From IMG/VR virus record IMGVR_UViG_2585427777_000015: DNA of 11,069 bases; one strand, given 5' to 3'. Shown here piece after piece: positions 1 to 9,015 of the stretch. A program made the translations under genes and the position numbers. The first letter of the stretch is position 1, and each line of letters opens with the position of its first letter. Source of the DNA: a virus. Lineage: Duplodnaviria > Heunggongvirae > Uroviricota > Caudoviricetes. Under the pieces are notes generated by a model. That model was not told where the DNA came from. It ran no database searches and was given only the letters and a program-made list of their open reading frames with translations.

Positions 1-285
1 TTCCGTCATGGCACCGAGAAAATCATTCAGCGTACCTGGTCTGGAGCCTTCATAGACGGTAATGGTCCCAACATGTGAAGGCGGAAAACCTTCAACCAGC
101 AGGGTGACGCTGTACTGACCATGCTCAACATCCATGCTGTAACGTCCGGCTTCATCCGGATTTTCAGAGGCCACCGTGTTCACCACCACCGTGCTGCTGG
201 TTCGTCTGGCCTTCAGCACAATGGTGCAGTTCTGTACTGGTTTTCCTGTGCCATCTTTAAGCACGCCAGAAATTTTTACTGTCAT
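1..285 (-). CDS. stf: Side tail fibre protein Stf, N-terminal 95 codons (partial, continues beyond window start)
   Basis: Minus-strand ATG at 285-283 preceded by GGTGGAAAAGT; translation MTVKISGVLKDGTGKPVQNCTIVLKARR...GFPPSHVGTITVYE matches my recollection of the conserved N-terminus of lambda Stf (orf401). Position after lom is the lambda gene order. Confidence 0.85.
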   Translation of the reverse strand, partial: MTVKISGVLKDGTGKPVQNCTIVLKARRTSSTVVVNTVASENPDEAGRYSMDVEHGQYSVTLLVEGFPPSHVGTITVYEGSRPGTLNDFLGAMTE

Positions 286-296
286 ACTTTTCCACC

Positions 297-332
297 AATA
301 AAAAAAGCCCGCAGCAGTGACGCCACGGGCTT
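297..332 (-). terminator. Putative intrinsic terminator between lom and stf
   Basis: Minus-strand hairpin (stem AAGCCCG/CGGGCTT, plus 305-332, 14-nt loop) followed by a T7 run (plus A-run 300-306). The loop is long, so only moderate. Confidence 0.45.
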
Positions 333-436
333 CAGGACAGTGTAACTTTACGTTTCCTCAAACGCAGTTCACCCCATAAGGTGGATGAACCTGCGTATCA
401 TAACAATATTTACAGAAGATAAATCGGCGTCTGTTG

Positions 437-1036
437 TCAGAAACGGTATCCGATACCAACAATAAATGCATCCGTTCGCCAGTCGCCACTACCGGAACCT
501 TCATAAGCAAGGTCAATGGTCACGGATTCGGTCGGATTAAACTGCACGCCAGCCCCCCACGCCAGAGACGTGTTGCTGTGGCGACCGTCATCACTTCCGG
601 TCAGCACATCGTGCGTTTTCCCCTTGTTGTCAGTTACGCGGAGATAATCCCCGGAGAAAGTCGACACACGGCTGTAAGCCACACCCACCATCGCATACGC
701 GCTGAACCATTCATTCACGCGTACAGACGGCCCCGCCATCACGCTGAACCAGCGGTTACGCACGGAATCTTCATGCCAGCGGGTATCGCTGTAGCGCGTT
801 TTTTGCTCATCCTCAGCATTGGCATAACTGAAGGACGTAATCAGCCCCAGCGCGTCCGTAAACTCATAACGGTATTTCACGTTAATCCCGTTCAGATCAT
901 CACTACCGGGAACGTTCGTCGAGGCATGGAGATACCCCGCGCTCAGCGTGGACTGATGTTCTGCTGCACTCGCTGGCGTAGCAGCGGCGACCTGCCAGAC
1001 TACTGCGGACAAAATAACAGCACATAATTTACGCAT
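437..1036 (-). CDS. lom: Lom outer-membrane protein (Ail/Lom/OmpX beta-barrel family)
   Basis: 199-aa ORF with signal peptide (MRKLCAVILSAVVWQVAAATPASA) and C-terminal motif DLAYEGSGSGDWRTDAFIVGIGYRF ending in aromatic F, matching lambda Lom as I recall it. SD GAGAGG upstream of ATG at 1036-1034. Located directly after J as in lambda. Confidence 0.9.
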   Translation of the reverse strand: MRKLCAVILSAVVWQVAAATPASAAEHQSTLSAGYLHASTNVPGSDDLNGINVKYRYEFTDALGLITSFSYANAEDEQKTRYSDTRWHEDSVRNRWFSVMAGPSVRVNEWFSAYAMVGVAYSRVSTFSGDYLRVTDNKGKTHDVLTGSDDGRHSNTSLAWGAGVQFNPTESVTIDLAYEGSGSGDWRTDAFIVGIGYRF

Positions 1037-1057
1037 AATTACCTCTCGCTTTTCTGC

Positions 1058-1084
1058 AATAAAAAAGGCGCCATTTCTGGCGCC
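1058..1084 (-). terminator. Intrinsic terminator between J and lom
   Basis: Perfect 6-bp GC stem GGCGCC/GGCGCC (plus 1067-1084, loop ATTTCT) followed on the minus strand by TTTTTTATT. Confidence 0.6.
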
Positions 1085-1103
1085 CGTATCTGGGTTATAA
1101 AAT

Positions 1104-4100
1104 TCAGCTAATCGTGATGCCTGCAGTGGCTTTCTTCATCACCACAACCAGCAAATCGCTGATACTTGCTGTGGGATACCAGTTATTTACCAGCCATGCT
1201 GACACCGAAAACTCCAGTGTCATGTGACCGTGACCGGCAGGCATATCAATAACACCACTGTAAATCAGCGTATTATCCAGCGCGGTACGGTTATAAATTT
1301 CAGCACCGTTTTTCCGCACTATCAGACGGCATGAGGAGTAAATATCAGTATGCTCTTTCTCATGTTTAGCGCCGCTGAATGCCACCGCCGGAATAACAAT
1401 CTGCCGGTCAAACGGCTGATCGTCATAAACCCTGACGGTAATGGTTCCTGATGGCCACCGCTCCGGTGCACGGGAGTCCCGAGGGAAAGCTTTGCCCACT
1501 GTTTTAACGAGATCGCCTTCAATCTGGTTCGCGGACAATTTTCCCAGAACCCGACAGTTCTCGTTAATCGTGACGTTGTTGAGCGTCCCGGAGTTCGCAT
1601 TCACGTTACCGCTGATATCGGCATTTTTCGCCGTCAGCCGCCCGTCCGGTGTCAGGGAAAATGCCGGAGGATTACCGCCGCTGGTAATGGTGGGAGCCGT
1701 CAGATATTTCAGGAACACTTCATTCATAAATATCTGATCGCCCTGACCAACAAACATCGGCTTTGTGTTGCCATTCGCAGGATTAATCATCGCAATCCTG
1801 TCTGCCGCCAGCAGCACCTGACTCTGCATTCCTGCTGGCGTATTCTCAATACCGGCACCGATACCCGCAATATAAAGGCGTCCGTCCTGCATCTGCTGCA
1901 GTTTCACGGCCCACATGCTGTTCAGGTTATTATTTGTATCAACCTGAACTTTCTGTATCTGCTGGATTGCCGCACTCTGATTTTCCAGTTTTTTATTGAC
2001 GGTCTGCGTGATTTCATTGCTGACATTCGTAATGGACGTCCTGATTTCAGCCAGGTCCGGCGCAAGCTGACCGTTATCAATCTGCGTCCACAGCTCCTGG
2101 GCCAGATGTGTTTTCCCGATTTCTCCTTTGAAAAAATCCAGGTAACCTTCCGCATCATCGCTCGCCCGACCGACAGCCTCCACGAATGCCGATTTGCCAA
2201 CAGTATTCACACTGCGGATATAAAAATAATAATCATGGCCCGGCTTGATATTGATACTGGCAGCTATCCAGTACAGCGCCGAGCCAAGATAGCGGGCTGC
2301 GGTTTCAACCTGCCTGATATCCGCAATCCGCTTTTCTGAGAACCAGAACTCAAACTGTACCGTCGGATCATAAACGGCAAGATACGGCGTGGCGGTTATC
2401 TGAAAATAGCCCGGCGTCAGCTCAATCCGCGACGGCGCTGCCGGTGCGGCAATCCGGAACGATACCGATGCCGGATCGCCCTGCTGCCCCCAGGCATTTG
2501 CCGCCCGGACTGTCAGCCTGTAGTTCCCTGGCGCCAGTTGCGTGAAGCGGTATGTGGTTTCCGTCGTCCTGGCCGTGCTGACCAGCCGCTCACTGCCATC
2601 ATCCGCTGCCACGGTCAGGCGAAGCAGGAAGCTCACGCCCTTCACCACCTTCGGCGTGTCCCAGCGGGCCAGTACCTGATACTCCCCGCTGTCTGCGGTG
2701 ACTTCGGCAGTCAGGTGCTGCACCGCTGGCGGCGTGACACCATTCACCGTGCCGCTCTGGTCGCCGTCAAAGTGCGCCCCGTTATCCACGATGGCTTCTT
2801 TTTCCGGTACATGCTGCACGGCGGTGATGGCATACGTGCCGTCATCGTTCTCACGGATACTCACGCAGCGGAACAGGCGCTGGCGCAGCGTCGGCAGCTT
2901 CAGCCCCCACACGCTGTATTCGGCAACGCCGTCAGGAACACGGCTCACTTTCACCTTCACGCCGTCGGTGACGGACTGGACCTCCACGCTGACCGGATTC
3001 CCCTGTCCGTCAACCAGGCTTATCAGCGTGGTGCCGGAGGATGGCAGCGTGATTTCACGGTCGAGCGTCAGCGTCCGGGTCTGGCTGTTTACCGCCAGCA
3101 CGCGCCCGCCGGTGCTGATACCGGCATAGTCATCATCACAGATTTCAATGACATCGCCCGGCACATGGCGAAGCCCTTCTGCGCCGACGCTGAAATCCAC
3201 GGTCTGCGTTTCCAGCAGTTCTGTTTTAATCAGCCACAGCCCGGCGCGGTGTGCCTGCCCCCGACTGGTACAGCCAAAGGCATCCATCTTCGTGACGTTA
3301 CGACCGTAACGGGCAATGGCCTGCGTGTCCTCCACAAGCTCTGTCGCCGTCTCCCAGCCGTTATCCGGGTCAATCCAGTTCACCTCAACGGCATTATGGC
3401 GGTCCTTCAGGGCGCTGAAGCTGTAGCGGAACGGCGCGCCATCATCCGGCATCACCACATTACTGCGGTTATAGGTCCACACCTTATCCGACGGTCGGTC
3501 CTGCACGAACGTCAGCGTCTGCCCGTTCCATACCGGCATACAGCGCATCGCCGAGCAGAAATCACTGAGCACATCCCACGCCTTGCGCTGTGTGGTCAGG
3601 TAAGCGTTACAGGTGATGCGCGGCTCCGTGCCACCAAAGCCATCCGGCACTGACTGGTCGCAGTACTGGCCGATGACATACAGCGCCCATTTATCCACAT
3701 CCGCCGCACCAAGACGTTTCCCCATGCCGTAGCGCGGGTGGGTCAGCATATCCCACAGACACCATGCCATGTTGTTGCTGTATGCTGGCTTAAACGTTCC
3801 GTCCCAGATACCGCTGTATTGCCGCGTCTGCGGGTTATAGTTCGACGGCACCTGCAGAATGCGCCCGCGAAGATGATAATTACGGCTCACCTGCTGGCTG
3901 CCGAACTGCTCCGAGTCCACCTGCACGCCGACCAGTGCCGTGTTCGGGTAGCACTGTTTCACATCGATGATTTCGGTGTATGACGACCAGAGCGTTTTGT
4001 TCTGCAGCTGGTCTGTGGTGCTGTCCGGCGTCATCCTGCGCATCCGGATATTAAACGGGCGCGGCGGCAGGTTACCCACCACCACCGAGGCCAGATACTG

Positions 4101-4583
4101 TGAGGTGGTTTTGCCTTTAATGGTGATGTCTTTTTCCGTCACCCAGCCACCGTTACGTTGTATCTGAACCAGCAGGCGGACTTCCGACGGATTCCGGTCC
4201 CCCTTTGAGGTGGTTTCCACCAGAGCCTGCACACCGAAGGTAAAGCGCAGACGGTCGATGTTTGCCGACGTGATGGTCCGGGTGATCGGCGTGTCATATT
4301 TCACTTCCGTACCCAGCACCGTCTCGGAACCGGAGGATTCAAATCCCTCCGGCGGTGTCTGCTCCTGCTCACCTGCCCGGAACACCACCGTGACACCGGA
4401 GATGTTGGTATTCCCCTCACTGTCCAGCACCGGTGTACTGTTCAGCAGCACGCTTTTTAATCCATCCACCGGACCTTCAATCGGCCCTTCGCTGATGGCA
4501 TCGATCACACTCAGTAATTGCGTGGATTTCAGGTTGTCCTTCGCTTCGCGCGGGGTATGCCCCTTACTGCTTCCTTTACCCAT
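1104..4583 (-). CDS. J: Tail tip fibre / host specificity protein J (central tail fibre, receptor-binding)
   Basis: 1159-aa ORF starting [54 protein letters not shown], the lambda gpJ N-terminus as I recall it; size (lambda J about 1132 aa) and position between I and lom agree. SD GGAG/GAGGA upstream of ATG at 4583. Confidence 0.95.
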
Positions 4584-4596
4584 TCCTCACACTCCA

Positions 4597-4625
4597 TAAA
4601 CAACAAAGCCGCCCAAAAGGCGGCT
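4597..4625 (-). terminator. Putative terminator downstream of the lipoprotein moron, immediately upstream of J
   Basis: Minus-strand hairpin AGCCGCC-TTTTG-GGCGGCT (plus 4607-4625) followed by TTGTTGTTTATGG (U-rich but interrupted). Confidence 0.45.
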
Positions 4626-4649
4626 CATGAGTTACAGCAGGATTAACTA

Positions 4650-4988
4650 TTATTTACATGCATTAACACTATCAGCAAAAATTTTTGGCGTTAATGCTGG
4701 TACACGTTCATAAAGAGTAAAACTACTGCCATTTCCTGCTTTTTTGATATCAAGCACAACATCATATCCCCCCATAGCCTGTGGAACTAAAAGGCTTACC
4801 CCATTCTCAATAGGAAGGGATGTTATAGGTGTTCCATTACCAGTCCATTGTCTGGATATGCAGCCTGACAATTCATCAATATTTTTTAATGAATTACCTT
4901 CCATTACAGGTTTTCCGGATTTTACGTAATCCAAAGATTTACATCCTGTTAAGGCAATAATCGTGCAGAATAAAATCGTTTTGTTCAT
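4650..4988 (-). CDS. Small predicted lipoprotein (about 112 aa), moron inserted between I and J; function unknown
   Basis: ORF with probable ATG start at 4988-4986 (the track's longer ORF starts at an upstream TTG). N-terminus MNKTILFCTIIALTGC is a lipoprotein signal peptide with lipobox LTGC. Region 4630-5060 is visibly AT-rich against GC-rich tail genes. Lambda has only about 60 nt between I and J. Confidence 0.6.
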   Translation of the reverse strand: MNKTILFCTIIALTGCKSLDYVKSGKPVMEGNSLKNIDELSGCISRQWTGNGTPITSLPIENGVSLLVPQAMGGYDVVLDIKKAGNGSSFTLYERVPALTPKIFADSVNACK

Positions 4989-5060
4989 ATAGCTAACCAA
5001 TAGAATAATTATCAGTGTTCGATATAAATATTAAATCAGTTAGAACATGAGTAAATAATA

Positions 5061-5702
5061 TTACCGCCCAATTACCACAACCTGACCACCATCCCCTTCA
5101 TCTGCCGTGCTGATCTCCTGAGATGCCACACGTGACCCCACGCGCATTTCACCGTACAGAACAGGCAGGACATTGCCCTGGGCAACCATGTTATCCAGTG
5201 AGGAGAAATAGGTGTTCTGTTTGCCGTTATCCGTTGTCTGTGTACGTGGAGTTTTGGGTTTAGGGGCCAGCATCTGTGCGACACCACCAAGCGTCATCGC
5301 TGCCCCCATAGAAAAGAGAATGTTACTGAAAGCGATACTGATTCCTGGCATCCAGATTGCCGTAGCAATCAGCGCCGCACCCAGCACTGCCTGAAAAACA
5401 CCACCACTTTTGGCACCCGCCAGACGCGGTACGATGTGGATCACGGCACCATTTGCCAGCGGCTCATTAAGACGGGATGATAATTCGGTTTCTCCTGCAT
5501 CCCGCCCGGCAATCCGTACCTGATACCAGCCATCGCTCAGTTTCTGACGAAACGCCGGGAGCTGTGTGGCCAGTGCGCGGATGGCTTCAGCCCCCGTTTT
5601 CACACGAAGGTCGATGCGGCGGCCAAATCGTTGCAAATCCCCGTAAAGGCAGATGCGTGCCATGCCCGGTGACGCCAGAGGGAGTGTGTGCGTCGCTGCC
5701 AT
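5061..5702 (-). CDS. I: Tail tip assembly protein I
   Basis: 213-aa ORF MAATHTLPLASPGMARICLYGDLQRFGRRIDLRVKTGAEAIRALATQLPAF... matching lambda gpI as recalled; its 5' end overlaps the 3' end of K by about 100 nt in another frame, as in lambda. Confidence 0.9.
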   Translation of the reverse strand: MAATHTLPLASPGMARICLYGDLQRFGRRIDLRVKTGAEAIRALATQLPAFRQKLSDGWYQVRIAGRDAGETELSSRLNEPLANGAVIHIVPRLAGAKSGGVFQAVLGAALIATAIWMPGISIAFSNILFSMGAAMTLGGVAQMLAPKPKTPRTQTTDNGKQNTYFSSLDNMVAQGNVLPVLYGEMRVGSRVASQEISTADEGDGGQVVVIGR

Positions 5703-6343
5703 TTGTCGGTGTACCTCTCTCGTTTGCTCAGTTGTTCAGGAATATGGTGCAGCAGCTCGCCGTCACCACAGTAAATGGCGGCATGATTCGGCACCGATGA
5801 ACCAAAACAGCACAGCAGCACATCGCCCGGCTGCGCCTCTGTCAGTGCGACACGGTAAAAACCAGTAGCCTCCATATTGTCAAGATAGAGATTCTGACCG
5901 TGACGCCACCAGTCATCCCCGCGATGAAAATTCGGCATCTCAATCCCCGCCAGATGATAAGCATCCCGGAACAGCGTGTAACAGTCCGTCACCCCGTGCT
6001 CAAAGCGCCGCCCGGTGAGATGCGGCACACAGCGGAACTTATGAATCGCCCCCCGGCAGACCAGCCACCACGGCAAATCACTCTGCACCTGCAGCCGCCG
6101 GTCAGCCTCACTCAGCCAGGGCAGACCACCGGGGTGGCTGTGGACCAGCGCCACAATCTCACCCTGCATTTCTGCCTGCAGCCAGTCCTCCGGAGCCATC
6201 CGGAAATAATCCTCCGGCTCACCGGAAATATTCACGCCGGGAAAATATCTTTCCCCCTCCGGCGCTCTCACCACGAAGCCGCACGACTCCGCTGGCGCAC
6301 ATCGCCGGGCGTGCGCCAGAATCGCTGATTCTGTCTCTGTCAT
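5600..6343 (-). CDS. K: Tail tip assembly protein K (JAMM/MPN + NlpC/P60 two-domain protein)
   Basis: Start taken at ATG 6343-6341 (MTETESAILAHARRCAPAESCGF...), 4 nt after the L stop; the track's longer ORF begins inside L. JAMM-like motif VHSHPGGLPWLSEAD and NlpC/P60-like Cys/His region (GVTDCYTLF ... NHAAIY) are visible. Confidence 0.9.
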   Translation of the reverse strand: MTETESAILAHARRCAPAESCGFVVRAPEGERYFPGVNISGEPEDYFRMAPEDWLQAEMQGEIVALVHSHPGGLPWLSEADRRLQVQSDLPWWLVCRGAIHKFRCVPHLTGRRFEHGVTDCYTLFRDAYHLAGIEMPNFHRGDDWWRHGQNLYLDNMEATGFYRVALTEAQPGDVLLCCFGSSVPNHAAIYCGDGELLHHIPEQLSKRERYTDKWQRRTHSLWRHRAWHASAFTGICNDLAAASTFV

Positions 6344-6347
6344 GGGA

Positions 6348-7046
6348 TTACTGCGAAAGTTTGTTAATGGAAAGGAAGCCGCCAAAGTTGCCGACGTTAT
6401 TGCGAAACTTACAGCCGCTCAGGCATTTGCTGCATTTATCCTTCGTGATATCGGACGTCGGCTGGTCATATTCATCCGCGACTGCCGGACCGTGATAACC
6501 GCACTCATCACCGCGATAGGTCCAGGTGCAGGTGTTGGCCAGCATGATACGCCCCGGAAAAACAGCGCCATCCGTTTCCGTCGGCGTGGACAGTACAAAG
6601 GAGGCACTCACCGCGCTCAGTTCGCTGCACTGCTCGATGCGCCAGCGGCTGATCACCTCCTGCTCCGGATCGGCGTCACTGTTTCCGTTGACGAAGTTCA
6701 CCGCATCCAGAAAACGGGCGTAAACCTTACGCCGAACCACCGTTCCGCCGACCAGACTCTGCAGATCTTCCGCCATCCCGGTGACCATACCGTACAGGTT
6801 AGAAACCGTCAGCGTGGGGCGCGTACTGGTGCCTTTGCCATTCAGTTCAAAACCACTCCCCTGAATGGGATACGGCTGATACTGTCGCCCCTGCCAGGTG
6901 ACCGGCTCACCTTTTTCGTTCTGCTCATTACAGAAAAAATAACGTTCTCCACCGACCTCTGTCAGGTCGATTTCCCAGAGCACCACGCTGGCCGACTGCT
7001 CCGCACGGGTGCATTCATTCAGTGTTTCCTGCCGGATATCCTGCAT
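6348..7046 (-). CDS. L: Tail tip protein L
   Basis: 232-aa ORF, same length as lambda gpL; C-terminal cysteine cluster (CTWTYRGDECGY ... CSKCLSGCKF) consistent with the Fe-S binding region of gpL. Start ATG overlaps the M stop by 1 nt, as in lambda. Confidence 0.9.
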   Translation of the reverse strand: MQDIRQETLNECTRAEQSASVVLWEIDLTEVGGERYFFCNEQNEKGEPVTWQGRQYQPYPIQGSGFELNGKGTSTRPTLTVSNLYGMVTGMAEDLQSLVGGTVVRRKVYARFLDAVNFVNGNSDADPEQEVISRWRIEQCSELSAVSASFVLSTPTETDGAVFPGRIMLANTCTWTYRGDECGYHGPAVADEYDQPTSDITKDKCSKCLSGCKFRNNVGNFGGFLSINKLSQ

Positions 7047-7378
7047 CAGTTCACCACCTGTTCAAACTCTGCGCTGAACTCAACACGCAGCATACTGACC
7101 CGCGACGACCATTTTGCGCAGGTCACCTTTATCTGCCGCCACTCATAAGGCGGCGTCCACAGAAAGGCTTTCCAGCCCCCGTGCTCTTCCAGAAACGACT
7201 CCAGTACCGTGGCCTCCTCACGGGGGACAGAAAGCGTCACGCTGTACGTTTTCAGGTTGGCATTCAGCCCGGCAGGCGCTCGCTGAGAATAGCCATCACC
7301 AAAGCGCACCTTTCTTACAGAAGGGGCCGAAGCCACATCCATACCGGGTTTCACTTTCCAGCGGAAGGTCTTCATCAT
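7046..7378 (-). CDS. M: Tail tip protein M
   Basis: 110-aa ORF MMKTFRWKVKPGMDV... matching lambda gpM size and position; ATG overlaps the H stop (ATGA). Confidence 0.9.
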   Translation of the reverse strand: MMKTFRWKVKPGMDVASAPSVRKVRFGDGYSQRAPAGLNANLKTYSVTLSVPREEATVLESFLEEHGGWKAFLWTPPYEWRQIKVTCAKWSSRVSMLRVEFSAEFEQVVN

Positions 7379-7620
7379 CCACCTCCGGAGAACAGACCAC
7401 CATCGCGCATCTGTGCCTGAATTTCATCACGGGCACCCTTGCGGGCCATGTCATACACTGCCTTCATCATCTGTGGACCTGGCAGACCATTCGTACCGTC
7501 GTTCTGAATCACCACGTGATTGTTCTGATTAAAATTAATGCCTTCAGCCCGCCGCATCTGCGCCGGACTTCCGGCACCGCCCACATAACCACCTTCCGCA
7601 TATATGCACCATATACCACT
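7375..7620 (-). pseudogene. H: 3'-terminal remnant (about 80 codons) of tape-measure gene H
   Basis: Frame open from an in-frame stop at 7621-7623 to the TGA at 7377-7375; translation ...GGAGSPAQMRRAEGINFNQNNHVVIQNDGTNGLPGPQMMKAVYDMARKGARDEIQAQMRDGGLFSGGG resembles the lambda gpH C-terminus and has the classic 4-nt overlap with M. A full H would be about 850 codons; the upstream sequence is an unrelated gene. Confidence 0.8.
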
Positions 7621-8507
7621 TCATATTGCGTACCGTGTTCTTGTTTCCACGCGTATGTCGTGTCGCCACAAATCCAGGGGACTGATGCCGGACTTCCACC
7701 GTGACACTGCGCCGCCAGCCCGGCAAGGTCAGCACGGAACTGCTGTACCATTGCAAGAAATGCTGCTGGCTGCTGGGCGTAACTGGCATTCGTCATATCG
7801 AATTCCCCCTGCATCCAGCATATCGCCAGCAAAACGTTTTTCGGGTTTTTCTGCAATGCTGCCTTCGTGCGGAAAAGCAGATCCTGATATAACGGCTTAC
7901 CCACTCCCCAGCGAGCCGAATCCTGACTGGCTCCCGTGGACTCGCTGAATGTCCCCTCCGTGCCCTGGGTGAATGCCGAACCACCACGACAGCATGGTAC
8001 CAGCAGGATCCCCGCATTATTAGGGATATACGGAAGCAGTTTTTTGGCAATATGTAAGCCCTGTCCGACACAGCCGTACTGCCCTTTGCTCAGGTCAGCC
8101 CGGGGATGGTTAATCGTACTCATATCCTGAACATCATGCAGACAATGGTCAGCAGGAATGATGTCGTTAAATACGCATACTTCACCACCGGGAGTCACTG
8201 TGTTACGACGGGCCAGTTGCTTAATGCGCGGATGGGGCGCATCGTATGAATCCGGAAGCGGAAGCCCTTCACCGTAAGCCATGGCATTGGATTGCCCGGC
8301 CAGTACGATGACGTAGTACCACTCCGGCTCAGTTGCACCACTGACGACCACATCACCTTCTGCTGCAATCGCCTGCATCAGGGTATAAGGGGTTATGGCC
8401 ACCGGACTACCAAACGGCTGCCAGCCCTCCTTCAGTTTTTGTGTCAGTCGTTTCGCAAGGTCTGACGGCGATGCCGCCCTGACCACGTCATAGTGTTTAA
8501 ATGCCAT
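7509..8507 (-). CDS. NanS-p-like sialate O-acetylesterase (DUF1737 N-domain + SGNH/SASA esterase), apparently 3'-truncated and fused out of frame to the H remnant
   Basis: Strong SD GGGAGGA before ATG 8507. N-terminus MAFKHYDVVRAASPSDLAKRLTQKLKEGW (DUF1737-like), then VIVLAGQSNAMAYGEGLPLPD...PHPRIKQLAR...ILLVPCCRGGSAFT...CWMQGEFD...WICGDTTYAWK, which tracks E. coli NanS/YjhS as I recall it. Similarity ends near YGAY (about 7602); the last ~30 codons read H-remnant DNA in the wrong frame. Confidence 0.8.
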   Translation of the reverse strand: MAFKHYDVVRAASPSDLAKRLTQKLKEGWQPFGSPVAITPYTLMQAIAAEGDVVVSGATEPEWYYVIVLAGQSNAMAYGEGLPLPDSYDAPHPRIKQLARRNTVTPGGEVCVFNDIIPADHCLHDVQDMSTINHPRADLSKGQYGCVGQGLHIAKKLLPYIPNNAGILLVPCCRGGSAFTQGTEGTFSESTGASQDSARWGVGKPLYQDLLFRTKAALQKNPKNVLLAICWMQGEFDMTNASYAQQPAAFLAMVQQFRADLAGLAAQCHGGSPASVPWICGDTTYAWKQEHGTQYEVVYGAYMRKVVMWAVPEVRRRCGGLKALILIRTITW

Positions 8508-8700
8508 GAATCCTCCCGGGCGGGATAATGTTGTGAGTCAGATAAGGAGCAGGCTGAAGTCCGGAAGTTACAGGACAATGGCAGAAGGGAGACTACAGCC
8601 CGCAATTCGAAAAAGACCGCGCAGTTGCGCAGAGTGATTACTATGGGGTATTATTCGCCAGCTGAAATATTACTTCACGTTTTATTGTTTATTCCTTGCC

Positions 8701-8729
8701 GCCCGCGTCTCCCAGCGCGGGCTTTTTTT
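8701..8729 (+). terminator. Plus-strand-oriented intrinsic terminator-like element
   Basis: Stem GCCCGCG/CGCGGGC (8701-8707 and 8716-8722, loop TCTCCCAG) followed by T7 (8723-8729) on the plus strand. No plus-strand gene is evident upstream. Confidence 0.4.
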
Positions 8730-8740
8730 GTCCATAAGAA

Positions 8741-8760
8741 AGCCCCTCCGGAGAGGGGCT
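8741..8760. repeat. Perfect 8-bp inverted repeat / hairpin
   Basis: AGCCCCTC-CGGA-GAGGGGCT, a perfect palindrome 12 nt downstream of the 8701-8729 element. Confidence 0.4.
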
Positions 8761-9015
8761 AAAGCCGCGTATCTGTATCATCATGCACATGGTGCCGGGT
8801 GCCTCCCGGTGAGTTCAGCCCGGTGCCACTAAACCCGCGTCATTCTCGTTTTGATAATCAGAGATTATACCGTCACCAGTCGCCCCTCCGCTCAGGGGGA
8901 TTCACCATGCCAGTTTCTTTTAACAAACTCCCCGCAAACCAGACAACAGTCAACCGCCTGAATTGTGAGACATTTAAAAAAAAGGCCCACAAAAGCGAGC
9001 CAGGGAAAATAAGTG

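Follow-up and report, generated by a model that had tools for sequence, protein, structure and literature searches.

The 11,069-nt stretch of viral DNA in record IMGVR_UViG_2585427777_000015 (Caudoviricetes), referred to here as the window, contains a late region in which a 508-bp interval poor in open reading frames (ORFs), at positions 8508-9015, lies between a trio of tRNA genes and a nanS-p-type esterase gene. A first description of this DNA, made from its letters alone and called here the sequence-only reading, had likened the arrangement to the late region of Shiga toxin (Stx)-converting lambdoid phages, and had proposed that the interval is an empty or decayed cargo site or that it may encode a small RNA. 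Our analysis indicates, with a probability that we put at roughly 0.87, that the interval is a toxin-free allele of the moron slot in the late region of a lambdoid prophage, and that it carries a conserved pair of convergent, independently terminated small RNA (sRNA) genes. By homology, we identify this pair with the "convergent sRNA dyad" described by Tree et al. 2014 (PMC4104026), a feature already known. The argument is carried by the two convergent units with their own terminators, the family memberships of both RNAs, covariation in one of them and synteny with characterised loci. All coordinates are positions of the window, whose late region runs on the minus strand. The features of the interval, in the direction of late transcription, are as follows.

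8976-9001, minus strand: intrinsic-terminator-like hairpin GGCTCGC-TTTT-GTGGGCC (9001-8984) with a run of eight T (8983-8976), directly after the last tRNA gene, argO (scan).
8972-8975, no strand: breakpoint at which stx2AB is found in Stx2 phages, here an uninterrupted empty junction (alignment with Stx2a phage ASU11; identical junction in Sakai prophage Sp4).
8940-8977, minus strand: conserved block TTAAATGTCTCACAATTCAGGCGGTTGACTGTTGTCTG with which the sRNA unit begins (conservation next to unrelated upstream contexts).
8939-8730, minus strand: STnc100-family Hfq-type sRNA gene (Rfam RF02076).
8795-8827, minus strand: GC-rich repeats acting as helix arms on the RNA strand (Rfam alignment, consensus structure and the analysis of a possible helix S1, described below).
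8733-8760, minus strand: STnc100-type terminator AGCCCCTC-TCCG-GAGGGGCT followed by UUUCUUAU (scan, Rfam alignment).
8548-8729, plus strand: EcOnc08/21/42-type sRNA gene (homology to the enteropathogenic Escherichia coli (EPEC) sRNA E2348C_1409.E2348C_1408.IGR).
8609-8632, minus strand: third late-strand terminator-like hairpin, CTGCGC-AACT-GCGCGG followed by UCUUUUUC, in the nanS-p leader (scan).
8501-8529, plus strand: promoter-like site ATGCCA-17-GATAAT, overlapping the nanS-p start codon and ribosome-binding site on the other strand (scan).

The minus-strand gene is a full-length member of the STnc100 family, matching model positions 1-206 of RF02076 with 152.1 bits against a gathering score of 47 (E = 1e-34), and it ends in a rho-independent terminator made of the stem 8760-8741 and UUUCUUAU. 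STnc100 matches occupy the equivalent position in ASU11 (74 nt after stx2B), phi296, FDAARGOS_1286, ATCC 11775, Nil3 and the Sakai prophages Sp4 and Sp5 (207.7 bits in the latter). To judge by sequence, the relatives of the window RNA are EcOnc27/sRNA103 and EcOnc04/05/06/13, with PasD as a distant relative. Family members were gathered from IMG/VR through a 16-nt core pattern and combined with the loci in hand, giving 61 distinct sequences in which 99.5% of the cells of the 27-pair consensus structure are paired. In helix 3 (GGRUUYRG/CYRAAYYC) six pairs show compensatory double changes, amounting to 41 cells; none of 500 shuffles attained the observed values, and slid partners pair in only 37-46% of cases. 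Since the retrieval pattern covers the 5' arm of helix 1 and most of that of helix 2, their invariance follows from how the members were collected. A variable stretch (8786-8762) separates the scaffold from the terminator; by analogy with the PasD seed, it is likely the targeting module. Northern blots and Hfq-CRAC on homologues suggest that the window RNA, too, would be transcribed and associated with Hfq. The invariant core of the RNA (8908-8873, minus strand) also reads AUG GUG AAU CCC CCU..., an ORF of 11 codons here and of about 25 codons in other variants.

The plus-strand gene aligns with the EPEC sRNA, an RNA bound by Hfq, over 182 of 182 nt, with 92.9% identity, no gaps and 13 substitutions, and the Northern probe for EcOnc08/21/42 matches the minus strand of the window at 8655-8621 in 30 of 35 positions when read by eye. 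Its terminator consists of a stem at 8701-8722 and seven U at 8723-8729, and directly before the stem stands the seed-like CCUUGCC (8694-8700), the exact complement of the RIL-seq motif GGCAAGG, which places the RNA within this sRNA type. The RNA is antisense to the nanS-p leader, with a predicted 5' end 41 nt from the esterase ATG, as in EPEC. The promoter-like site at 8501-8529, whose GATAAT is conserved in Sp4, Sp5 and EPEC prophage PP6, may drive its transcription; the start predicted from this site falls near 8536, about 12 nt upstream of the EPEC-estimated start. The two units face each other, with 3' ends at 8729 on the plus strand and at about 8733 on the minus strand, so that both terminators abut. 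The plus-strand sRNA is present (at least 80% coverage) in 985 of 5,426 complete E. coli genomes, roughly one in five. No annotated feature lies under its matches among those listed, even at 100% identity, and neither sRNA is annotated in the RefSeq feature tables of the compared loci.

Two other identities were considered for the plus-strand RNA. From its position one would expect AsxR (RF02703) or AgvB (RF02702), for which no Rfam match was obtained in 8300-9400 at E values up to 5; in the Sakai Sp5 control the same models scored 88.1 bits (AsxR) and 40.9 bits (AgvB). By these searches, the window RNA shares the slot with AsxR and AgvB and belongs to a different family. A weak OmrA-B match at 8641-8729 on the plus strand (25 bits against a cut-off of 40, E = 0.028) was dismissed as a terminator-driven chance likeness, because the EcOnc08-type sRNA already explains the stretch.

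The proposal of a small RNA in the sequence-only reading thus finds its counterpart in two sRNA genes, recognised by homology. That reading had also listed a plus-oriented terminator, a palindrome and GC-rich direct repeats; all are present as described, and they are not independent oddities but the terminators and helices of the sRNAs. The plus-oriented hairpin with its run of seven T is the terminator of the EcOnc08-type gene, and the palindrome CTCCGGAG (8746-8753), the only perfect one of 8 bp, forms the apex of the STnc100-type terminator. The direct repeats CCGGGTGCC (8795-8803) and CCCGGTGCC (8819-8827) become, on the RNA strand, GGCACCCGG (8803-8795), which includes the 3' arm of a CCGGG/CCCGG hairpin, and GGCACCGGG (8827-8819), which holds the CACCGG arm that is the partner of CUGGUG.

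Pairs of this kind have been described at homologous loci. Tree et al. 2014 reported, from Hfq-CRAC and Northern blots, that in lambdoid Sakai prophages the moron slot, 3' of PR', is occupied by pairs of convergent sRNAs, in eight prophages in all (Sp3, 4, 5, 9, 10, 11, 15 and 17), the Sp5 pair being EcOnc27 and AsxR, 3' of stx2B (PMC4104026). The probe sequences of that study for EcOnc27, EcOnc04, EcOnc05, EcOnc06 and EcOnc13 all correspond to STnc100 variants within our family set. EcOnc27 is sRNA103 of strain EDL933, whose overexpression leads to higher fimZ and espA transcripts (PMC7873438, PMC12711010). An STnc100 RNA located 75 nt downstream of stx2B has also been found in outer-membrane vesicles (PMC12370729), and differences in the Stx2-phage copy have been linked to clinical outcome (PMC12711010). 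PasD and STnc100 have been described as a family of common ancestry upstream of a sialate esterase (Zhu, Shabalina & Storz 2026 preprint). For the opposing partner, Pearl Mizrahi et al. 2021 mapped the EPEC sRNA by RNA-seq and RIL-seq and equated it with EcOnc08/21/42 (PMC8550237); its RIL-seq partners include cfa (767 chimeras), dppA (197) and tir, with GGCAAGG as the common target motif (PMC8550237).

The likeness to the late region of Stx-converting phages is real. The window has the order Q, tR', ileZ/argN/argO, cargo slot and nanS-p of such a locus, and the toxin genes that Stx2 phages carry here are missing: between the tRNAs and nanS-p there is neither stxA nor stxB, no ORF of at least 60 codons free of tRNA overlap was found in 8508-9015, as had been stated, and blastn and tblastn showed no similarity to the ASU11 stx2AB cassette beyond chance. 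Matches to the interval were found in 287 phage records, most of them from Stx2 phages; they cover about 465 of the 508 bases with 86-92% identity, and in Stx2 phages the matching DNA lies downstream of stx2B. In ASU11, window 8455-8972 aligns downstream of stx2B (positions 2501-3022 of locus L001; BLAST) and window 8975-9400 aligns from just upstream of stx2A through the tRNAs (L001 4355-4781; BLAST); between the two blocks ASU11 has 1,332 bp that the window lacks, with both stx2A and stx2B inside. On this alignment, a toxin cassette would have its place at the end of the interval nearest the tRNAs, right after the terminator. The sequence-only reading had assigned the whole interval to the toxin genes, and this part of it does not hold, for stx2AB sits at one edge only (8972/8975), and the remaining 465 bp or so are, by this alignment, a conserved module found after stx2B and not a placeholder. 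The hairpin next to argO (9001-8984) likewise stands before stx2A in ASU11, and it is present in phi296 and Sakai Sp4.

Toxin-free relatives have the same arrangement. The stx-negative phages phi296 and PPwrbA_EH2201 are colinear with window 8400-9400. E. coli FDAARGOS_1286 is 99.7% identical over 7601-9400; its 617-aa esterase is intact, and genes for holin and lysozyme come next. The stx-negative O157 Sakai prophage Sp4 has the same layout with an identical junction sequence. A query that runs from argO across the junction has an unbroken match in 1,018 of 5,426 complete E. coli genomes. In many of these, the type strain ATCC 11775 among them, the stretch from argO to the esterase holds a tandem pair of STnc100-type copies and spans about 700 bp compared with 233; in ATCC 11775 (locus L005) the copies lie at 2871-3080 and 3358-3548, and their central modules differ.

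These comparisons bear on the idea that the toxin site was emptied, that is, that the prophage derives from an Stx2 phage which lost stx2AB by precise deletion and that the interval is the scar. The flanks are indeed colinear with those of Stx2 phages at 88-93% identity, with a sharp breakpoint. The interval nevertheless lacks any stx nucleotide or protein remnant (best blastn match against the ASU11 stx2AB cassette, E = 0.52; best tblastn match against Stx2A/Stx2B, E = 0.75), the identical junction is found in Sp4 and a contiguous one in about a thousand genomes, and the junction falls exactly between a terminator and a self-contained sRNA unit that adjoins many other upstream contexts. This pattern is expected if stx2AB was inserted as a moron, although the direction of the event is not provable from sequence. 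We consider a scar quite improbable, and the site is not decayed, as its end-to-end colinearity with stx-negative Sp4, phi296, PPwrbA and FDAARGOS_1286 shows. Such an alignment with non-Stx lambdoid prophages, together with cargo never found at the site or the absence of any transcript, had been named in the sequence-only reading as grounds for abandoning it; the alignment is there, but stx2AB occurs at this site elsewhere and transcripts of homologous loci are documented (PMC4104026, PMC8550237). The BLASTN comparison with Stx phages proposed alongside had been meant to separate stx flanks from an stx-negative allele, and the interval matches both.

Another possibility is that the interval is a purely cis-acting spacer, whose hairpins serve only to terminate and insulate transcription of the tRNA cluster and the late operon, and whose homologues elsewhere yield RNAs as by-products with no function in trans. 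Three late-strand terminators and one opposing terminator within about 400 bp fit this idea, as does the fact that the functions of EcOnc27/sRNA103 and EcOnc08 have not been established mechanistically. It accounts poorly, however, for the covariation that maintains internal helices outside the terminator, for the retention of the scaffold beside very different neighbours, for the binding and stabilisation of the homologues by Hfq (PMC4104026), and for the hundreds of RIL-seq chimeras of the EPEC homologue, whose target motif is complementary to the conserved seed (PMC8550237); we regard it as improbable. Least probable of all, and very much so, is that the interval encodes small proteins, either from the 11-codon AUG GUG AAU CCC CCU... 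frame in STnc100 or from plus-strand ORFs of 43-45 codons. Some EDL933 copies of STnc100 do show ribosome coverage values above 1 (RIBOseq, PMC5331693), and PHANOTATE called short ORFs here in phage phi296. Yet the length of the STnc100 frame and its sequence past codon 9 vary (11 versus about 25 codons) while base pairing persists, no Shine-Dalgarno sequence precedes the AUG, and the plus-strand ORFs run through the terminator. Translation of the 11-codon ORF seems unlikely.

Several observations weigh against the interpretation of the interval as a working pair of sRNA genes. The plus-strand promoter-like site, taken alone, is at chance level, and the promoter scan found no consensus sigma-70 promoter for the STnc100-type gene. 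Single-sequence folding energies are unremarkable for both RNAs (z = -0.86 for the minus-strand RNA and -1.0 for the plus-strand RNA) and carry no information either way. The plus-strand homologues, more than 90% identical, are too similar for a covariation test, and their terminator stem varies only in its loop. The 5' ends derive from Northern sizes and RNA-seq estimates at other loci, and the transcription and Hfq-binding evidence comes from homologues throughout; the trans functions of these homologues are themselves only partly validated, through overexpression effects and RIL-seq chimeras (PMC7873438, PMC12711010, PMC8550237). Finally, the late-operon logic may no longer matter in this prophage, because it is a deletion remnant.

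As promoter scans gave no convincing site, the promoter and 5'-end assignments of the minus-strand RNA rest on conservation and published RNA sizes. The block before the Rfam match, TTAAAT-N-CTCACAATTCAG-N-GTTGA-N-TTGYCTG, is kept whether a tRNA gene, stx2B or another context lies upstream; TTAAAT (8977-8972) is likely the -10 region, and the block would also be the 5' extension of a long form of the sRNA. Counted from CACAATT to its 3' end, the RNA would measure 219 nt in Sp4 and 234 nt in Sp5, which fits the published Northern sizes of about 222 and 235 nt; the same count gives about 237 nt in the window, where the long form probably begins near 8966. The EcOnc13 Northern probe maps to the corresponding 5' region of an STnc100 family member. 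A second, short form of about 180 nt, starting at about 8910 (GCAUGG), is possible: its putative start lies downstream of TTGTCT (8946-8941), an 18-nt spacer and TG-n-TAAAAG (8925-8917), an RNA-seq 5' end of PasD2 falls at the homologous GCATGG, and EcOnc06 runs at about 177 nt.

Among the compared systems, Sakai Sp4 (argO1 - EcOnc05/EcOnc08 - ECs_1088) agrees with the window in the tRNA trio, the terminator, the empty junction, the STnc100-type RNA, the convergent sRNA and the leader and start of nanS-p. It differs in the central module of STnc100, which reads ACUGGUG...CACCGGG in the window and AUCAGCG...GCUGGUA in Sp4, and in the stretch before the terminator, and the esterase of the window is truncated. 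The Stx2 phage Sp5/933W shares the slot, the convergent layout, the STnc100 scaffold and the nanS-p leader, but it has stx2AB upstream, and its convergent partner is the 53-nt anti-sRNA AsxR (88 bits in Rfam), which is absent from the window. In Sp5 the segment 4683-4834 (locus L007) corresponds to window 8548-8640: the 5' half of the EcOnc08-type unit is kept, including GATAAT and the hairpin CTGCGCAACTGCGCGG, while the 3' half is the AsxR module, a pattern suggesting that the convergent partner exchanges its 3' end as a module. The EPEC E2348/69 sRNA has the same terminator, CCUUGCC seed and antisense position with respect to the esterase leader; its prophage PP6 differs in having ISEc13 (612-1985 of locus L129) between the second tRNA gene and the STnc100 copy, and in lacking the third tRNA gene (argO). 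PasD1 and PasD2 of EPEC resemble the minus-strand RNA in their late-strand site upstream of a sialate esterase, in the closing helix GCAUGGUG.../...CCAUGC and in hairpin architecture. The match to PasD is limited to 29 nt of the shared 5' scaffold (83% identity, E = 0.005), and the PasD seed UGUGAG is absent from the window, so that the window RNA was not assigned to PasD; PasD2 itself falls under the Rfam cut-off for STnc100.

Within the STnc100 scaffold, an additional pairing not drawn in the Rfam consensus line was observed. In 57 of the 61 distinct members, the 6-9 nt that follow the CCCCC/GGGG hairpin can pair with the loop of helix 3; in the window this pairing, named S1, is CUGGUG/CACCGG, at about 8881-8876 with 8825-8820 (columns 61-76 with 123-134 of alignment A3). 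Since the variable arms are not aligned in register by MAFFT, S1 was scored by a script seeking an ungapped duplex. Only 7.8% of shuffled loops attain the same length, and the pairing is retained in at least five sequence classes (CUGGUG/CACCGG, AUCAGC/GCUGRU, AUCAGU/ACUGAU, AAUGAC/GUCAUU and UCUGGC/GCCAGG); these two lines of evidence are more useful than the cross-type control, which is inflated by near-identical classes (47% at 6 bp or more). S1 crosses helix 3 in a pseudoknot topology; as the connecting loop has just 0-1 nt, the two helices may form in turn rather than together. The scaffold might thus hold a second covarying helix that alternates with helix 3 as a conformational switch, governing for instance access to the seed or of Hfq, a proposal that we make tentatively and hold to be somewhat doubtful; S1 is possibly a detail unreported so far.

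Around the interval, the minus strand presents in order the end of Q, the tR' hairpin, a small ORF, a DNA methylase gene, the tRNA trio, the interval itself and the esterase.

11067-10942, minus strand: last 42 codons of the Q antiterminator, with the stop codon at 10941-10939 (the C-terminal residues of a 273-aa Pfam Antiterm protein from E. coli ATCC 11775 are identical).
10856-10841, minus strand: tR'-like hairpin with a T-run (scan).
10712-10515, minus strand: 65-codon ORF between tR' and the methylase gene.
10364-9315, minus strand: N6/N4 DNA methylase ORF (Pfam), absent from the list of the sequence-only reading.
9265-9190, minus strand: tRNA Ile2/Met(CAT) (ARAGORN, Rfam tRNA).
9182-9106, minus strand: tRNA Arg(TCG) (ARAGORN, Rfam tRNA).
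9092-9016, minus strand: tRNA Arg(TCT) (ARAGORN, Rfam tRNA).
7509-8507, minus strand: nanS-p-type esterase ORF (DUF1737 and SASA, Pfam), with the ribosome-binding site GGGAGGA at 8517-8511.

The order Q, PR'/tR', tRNA trio and nanS-p given in the sequence-only reading was thus recovered for Q, the tR'-like hairpin, the tRNAs and the esterase, while PR' stayed below the consensus threshold of the promoter scan and is plausible by eye only. RefSeq names the equivalent trio ileZ/argN/argO in the O157 Sakai prophages Sp4 and Sp5, and by this comparison the window trio (9016-9265) is of the ileZ/argN/argO type of lambdoid late regions. Between 8300 and 9400 the scan found five terminator-like sites, compared with 1.2 +/- 1.0 in shuffles, and one promoter-like site against 0.8 expected, which is chance level. 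The nanS-p leader hairpin (8609-8632) is nearly invariant across all seven loci compared. The 65-codon ORF has a weak winged-helix likeness (TrmB, HTH_24 and MarR_2; E = 0.002-0.007, under the curated cut-offs), and has a terminator-like hairpin of its own after it (10528-10511). The prophage of the window is a deletion remnant that lacks the lysis, terminase and head genes along with most of those for the tail shaft: homology to the intact 617-aa esterase ends at 7601, the esterase ORF finishes as a 332-aa fusion, and to the left of 7602 the window (2-7602) is 99.8% identical to a lambda-like tail region with minor tail gene M (7378-7046), L, and then K, I, J and Lom. No complete E. coli genome spans at least 80% of the window, the best candidate, E1433, being a different remnant.

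If the interval functions as its homologues do, transcription from PR' in a lysogen would stop at tR', and both sRNAs would be made from their own promoters and would bind Hfq. Judging from close homologues, both may act in trans on host and virulence mRNAs, and the plus-strand RNA could target cfa, dppA and tir through its CCUUGCC seed, as has been reported for its homologues. By established lambdoid biology, the three late-strand terminators (9001-8976, 8760-8733 and 8632-8609) would shield nanS-p and the lysis genes from transcription until, on induction, Q-modified polymerase passes through them. In Stx2 phages, stx2AB would be a further moron that entered between the terminator of the tRNAs and the sRNA unit.

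New biology in this locus is limited to the possible helix S1. Because both sRNAs are unannotated in the matching RefSeq records, genome scans will keep flagging the interval. For the typing of stx-negative relatives of Stx phages, it is useful to know exactly where stx2AB is inserted with respect to the tRNA terminator and the sRNA unit. What appears to be an empty toxin site is a module common in lambdoid prophages, whether or not they carry Shiga toxin, and encodes two Hfq-type regulators whose homologues have been linked to cfa, dppA, tir, espA and fimZ.

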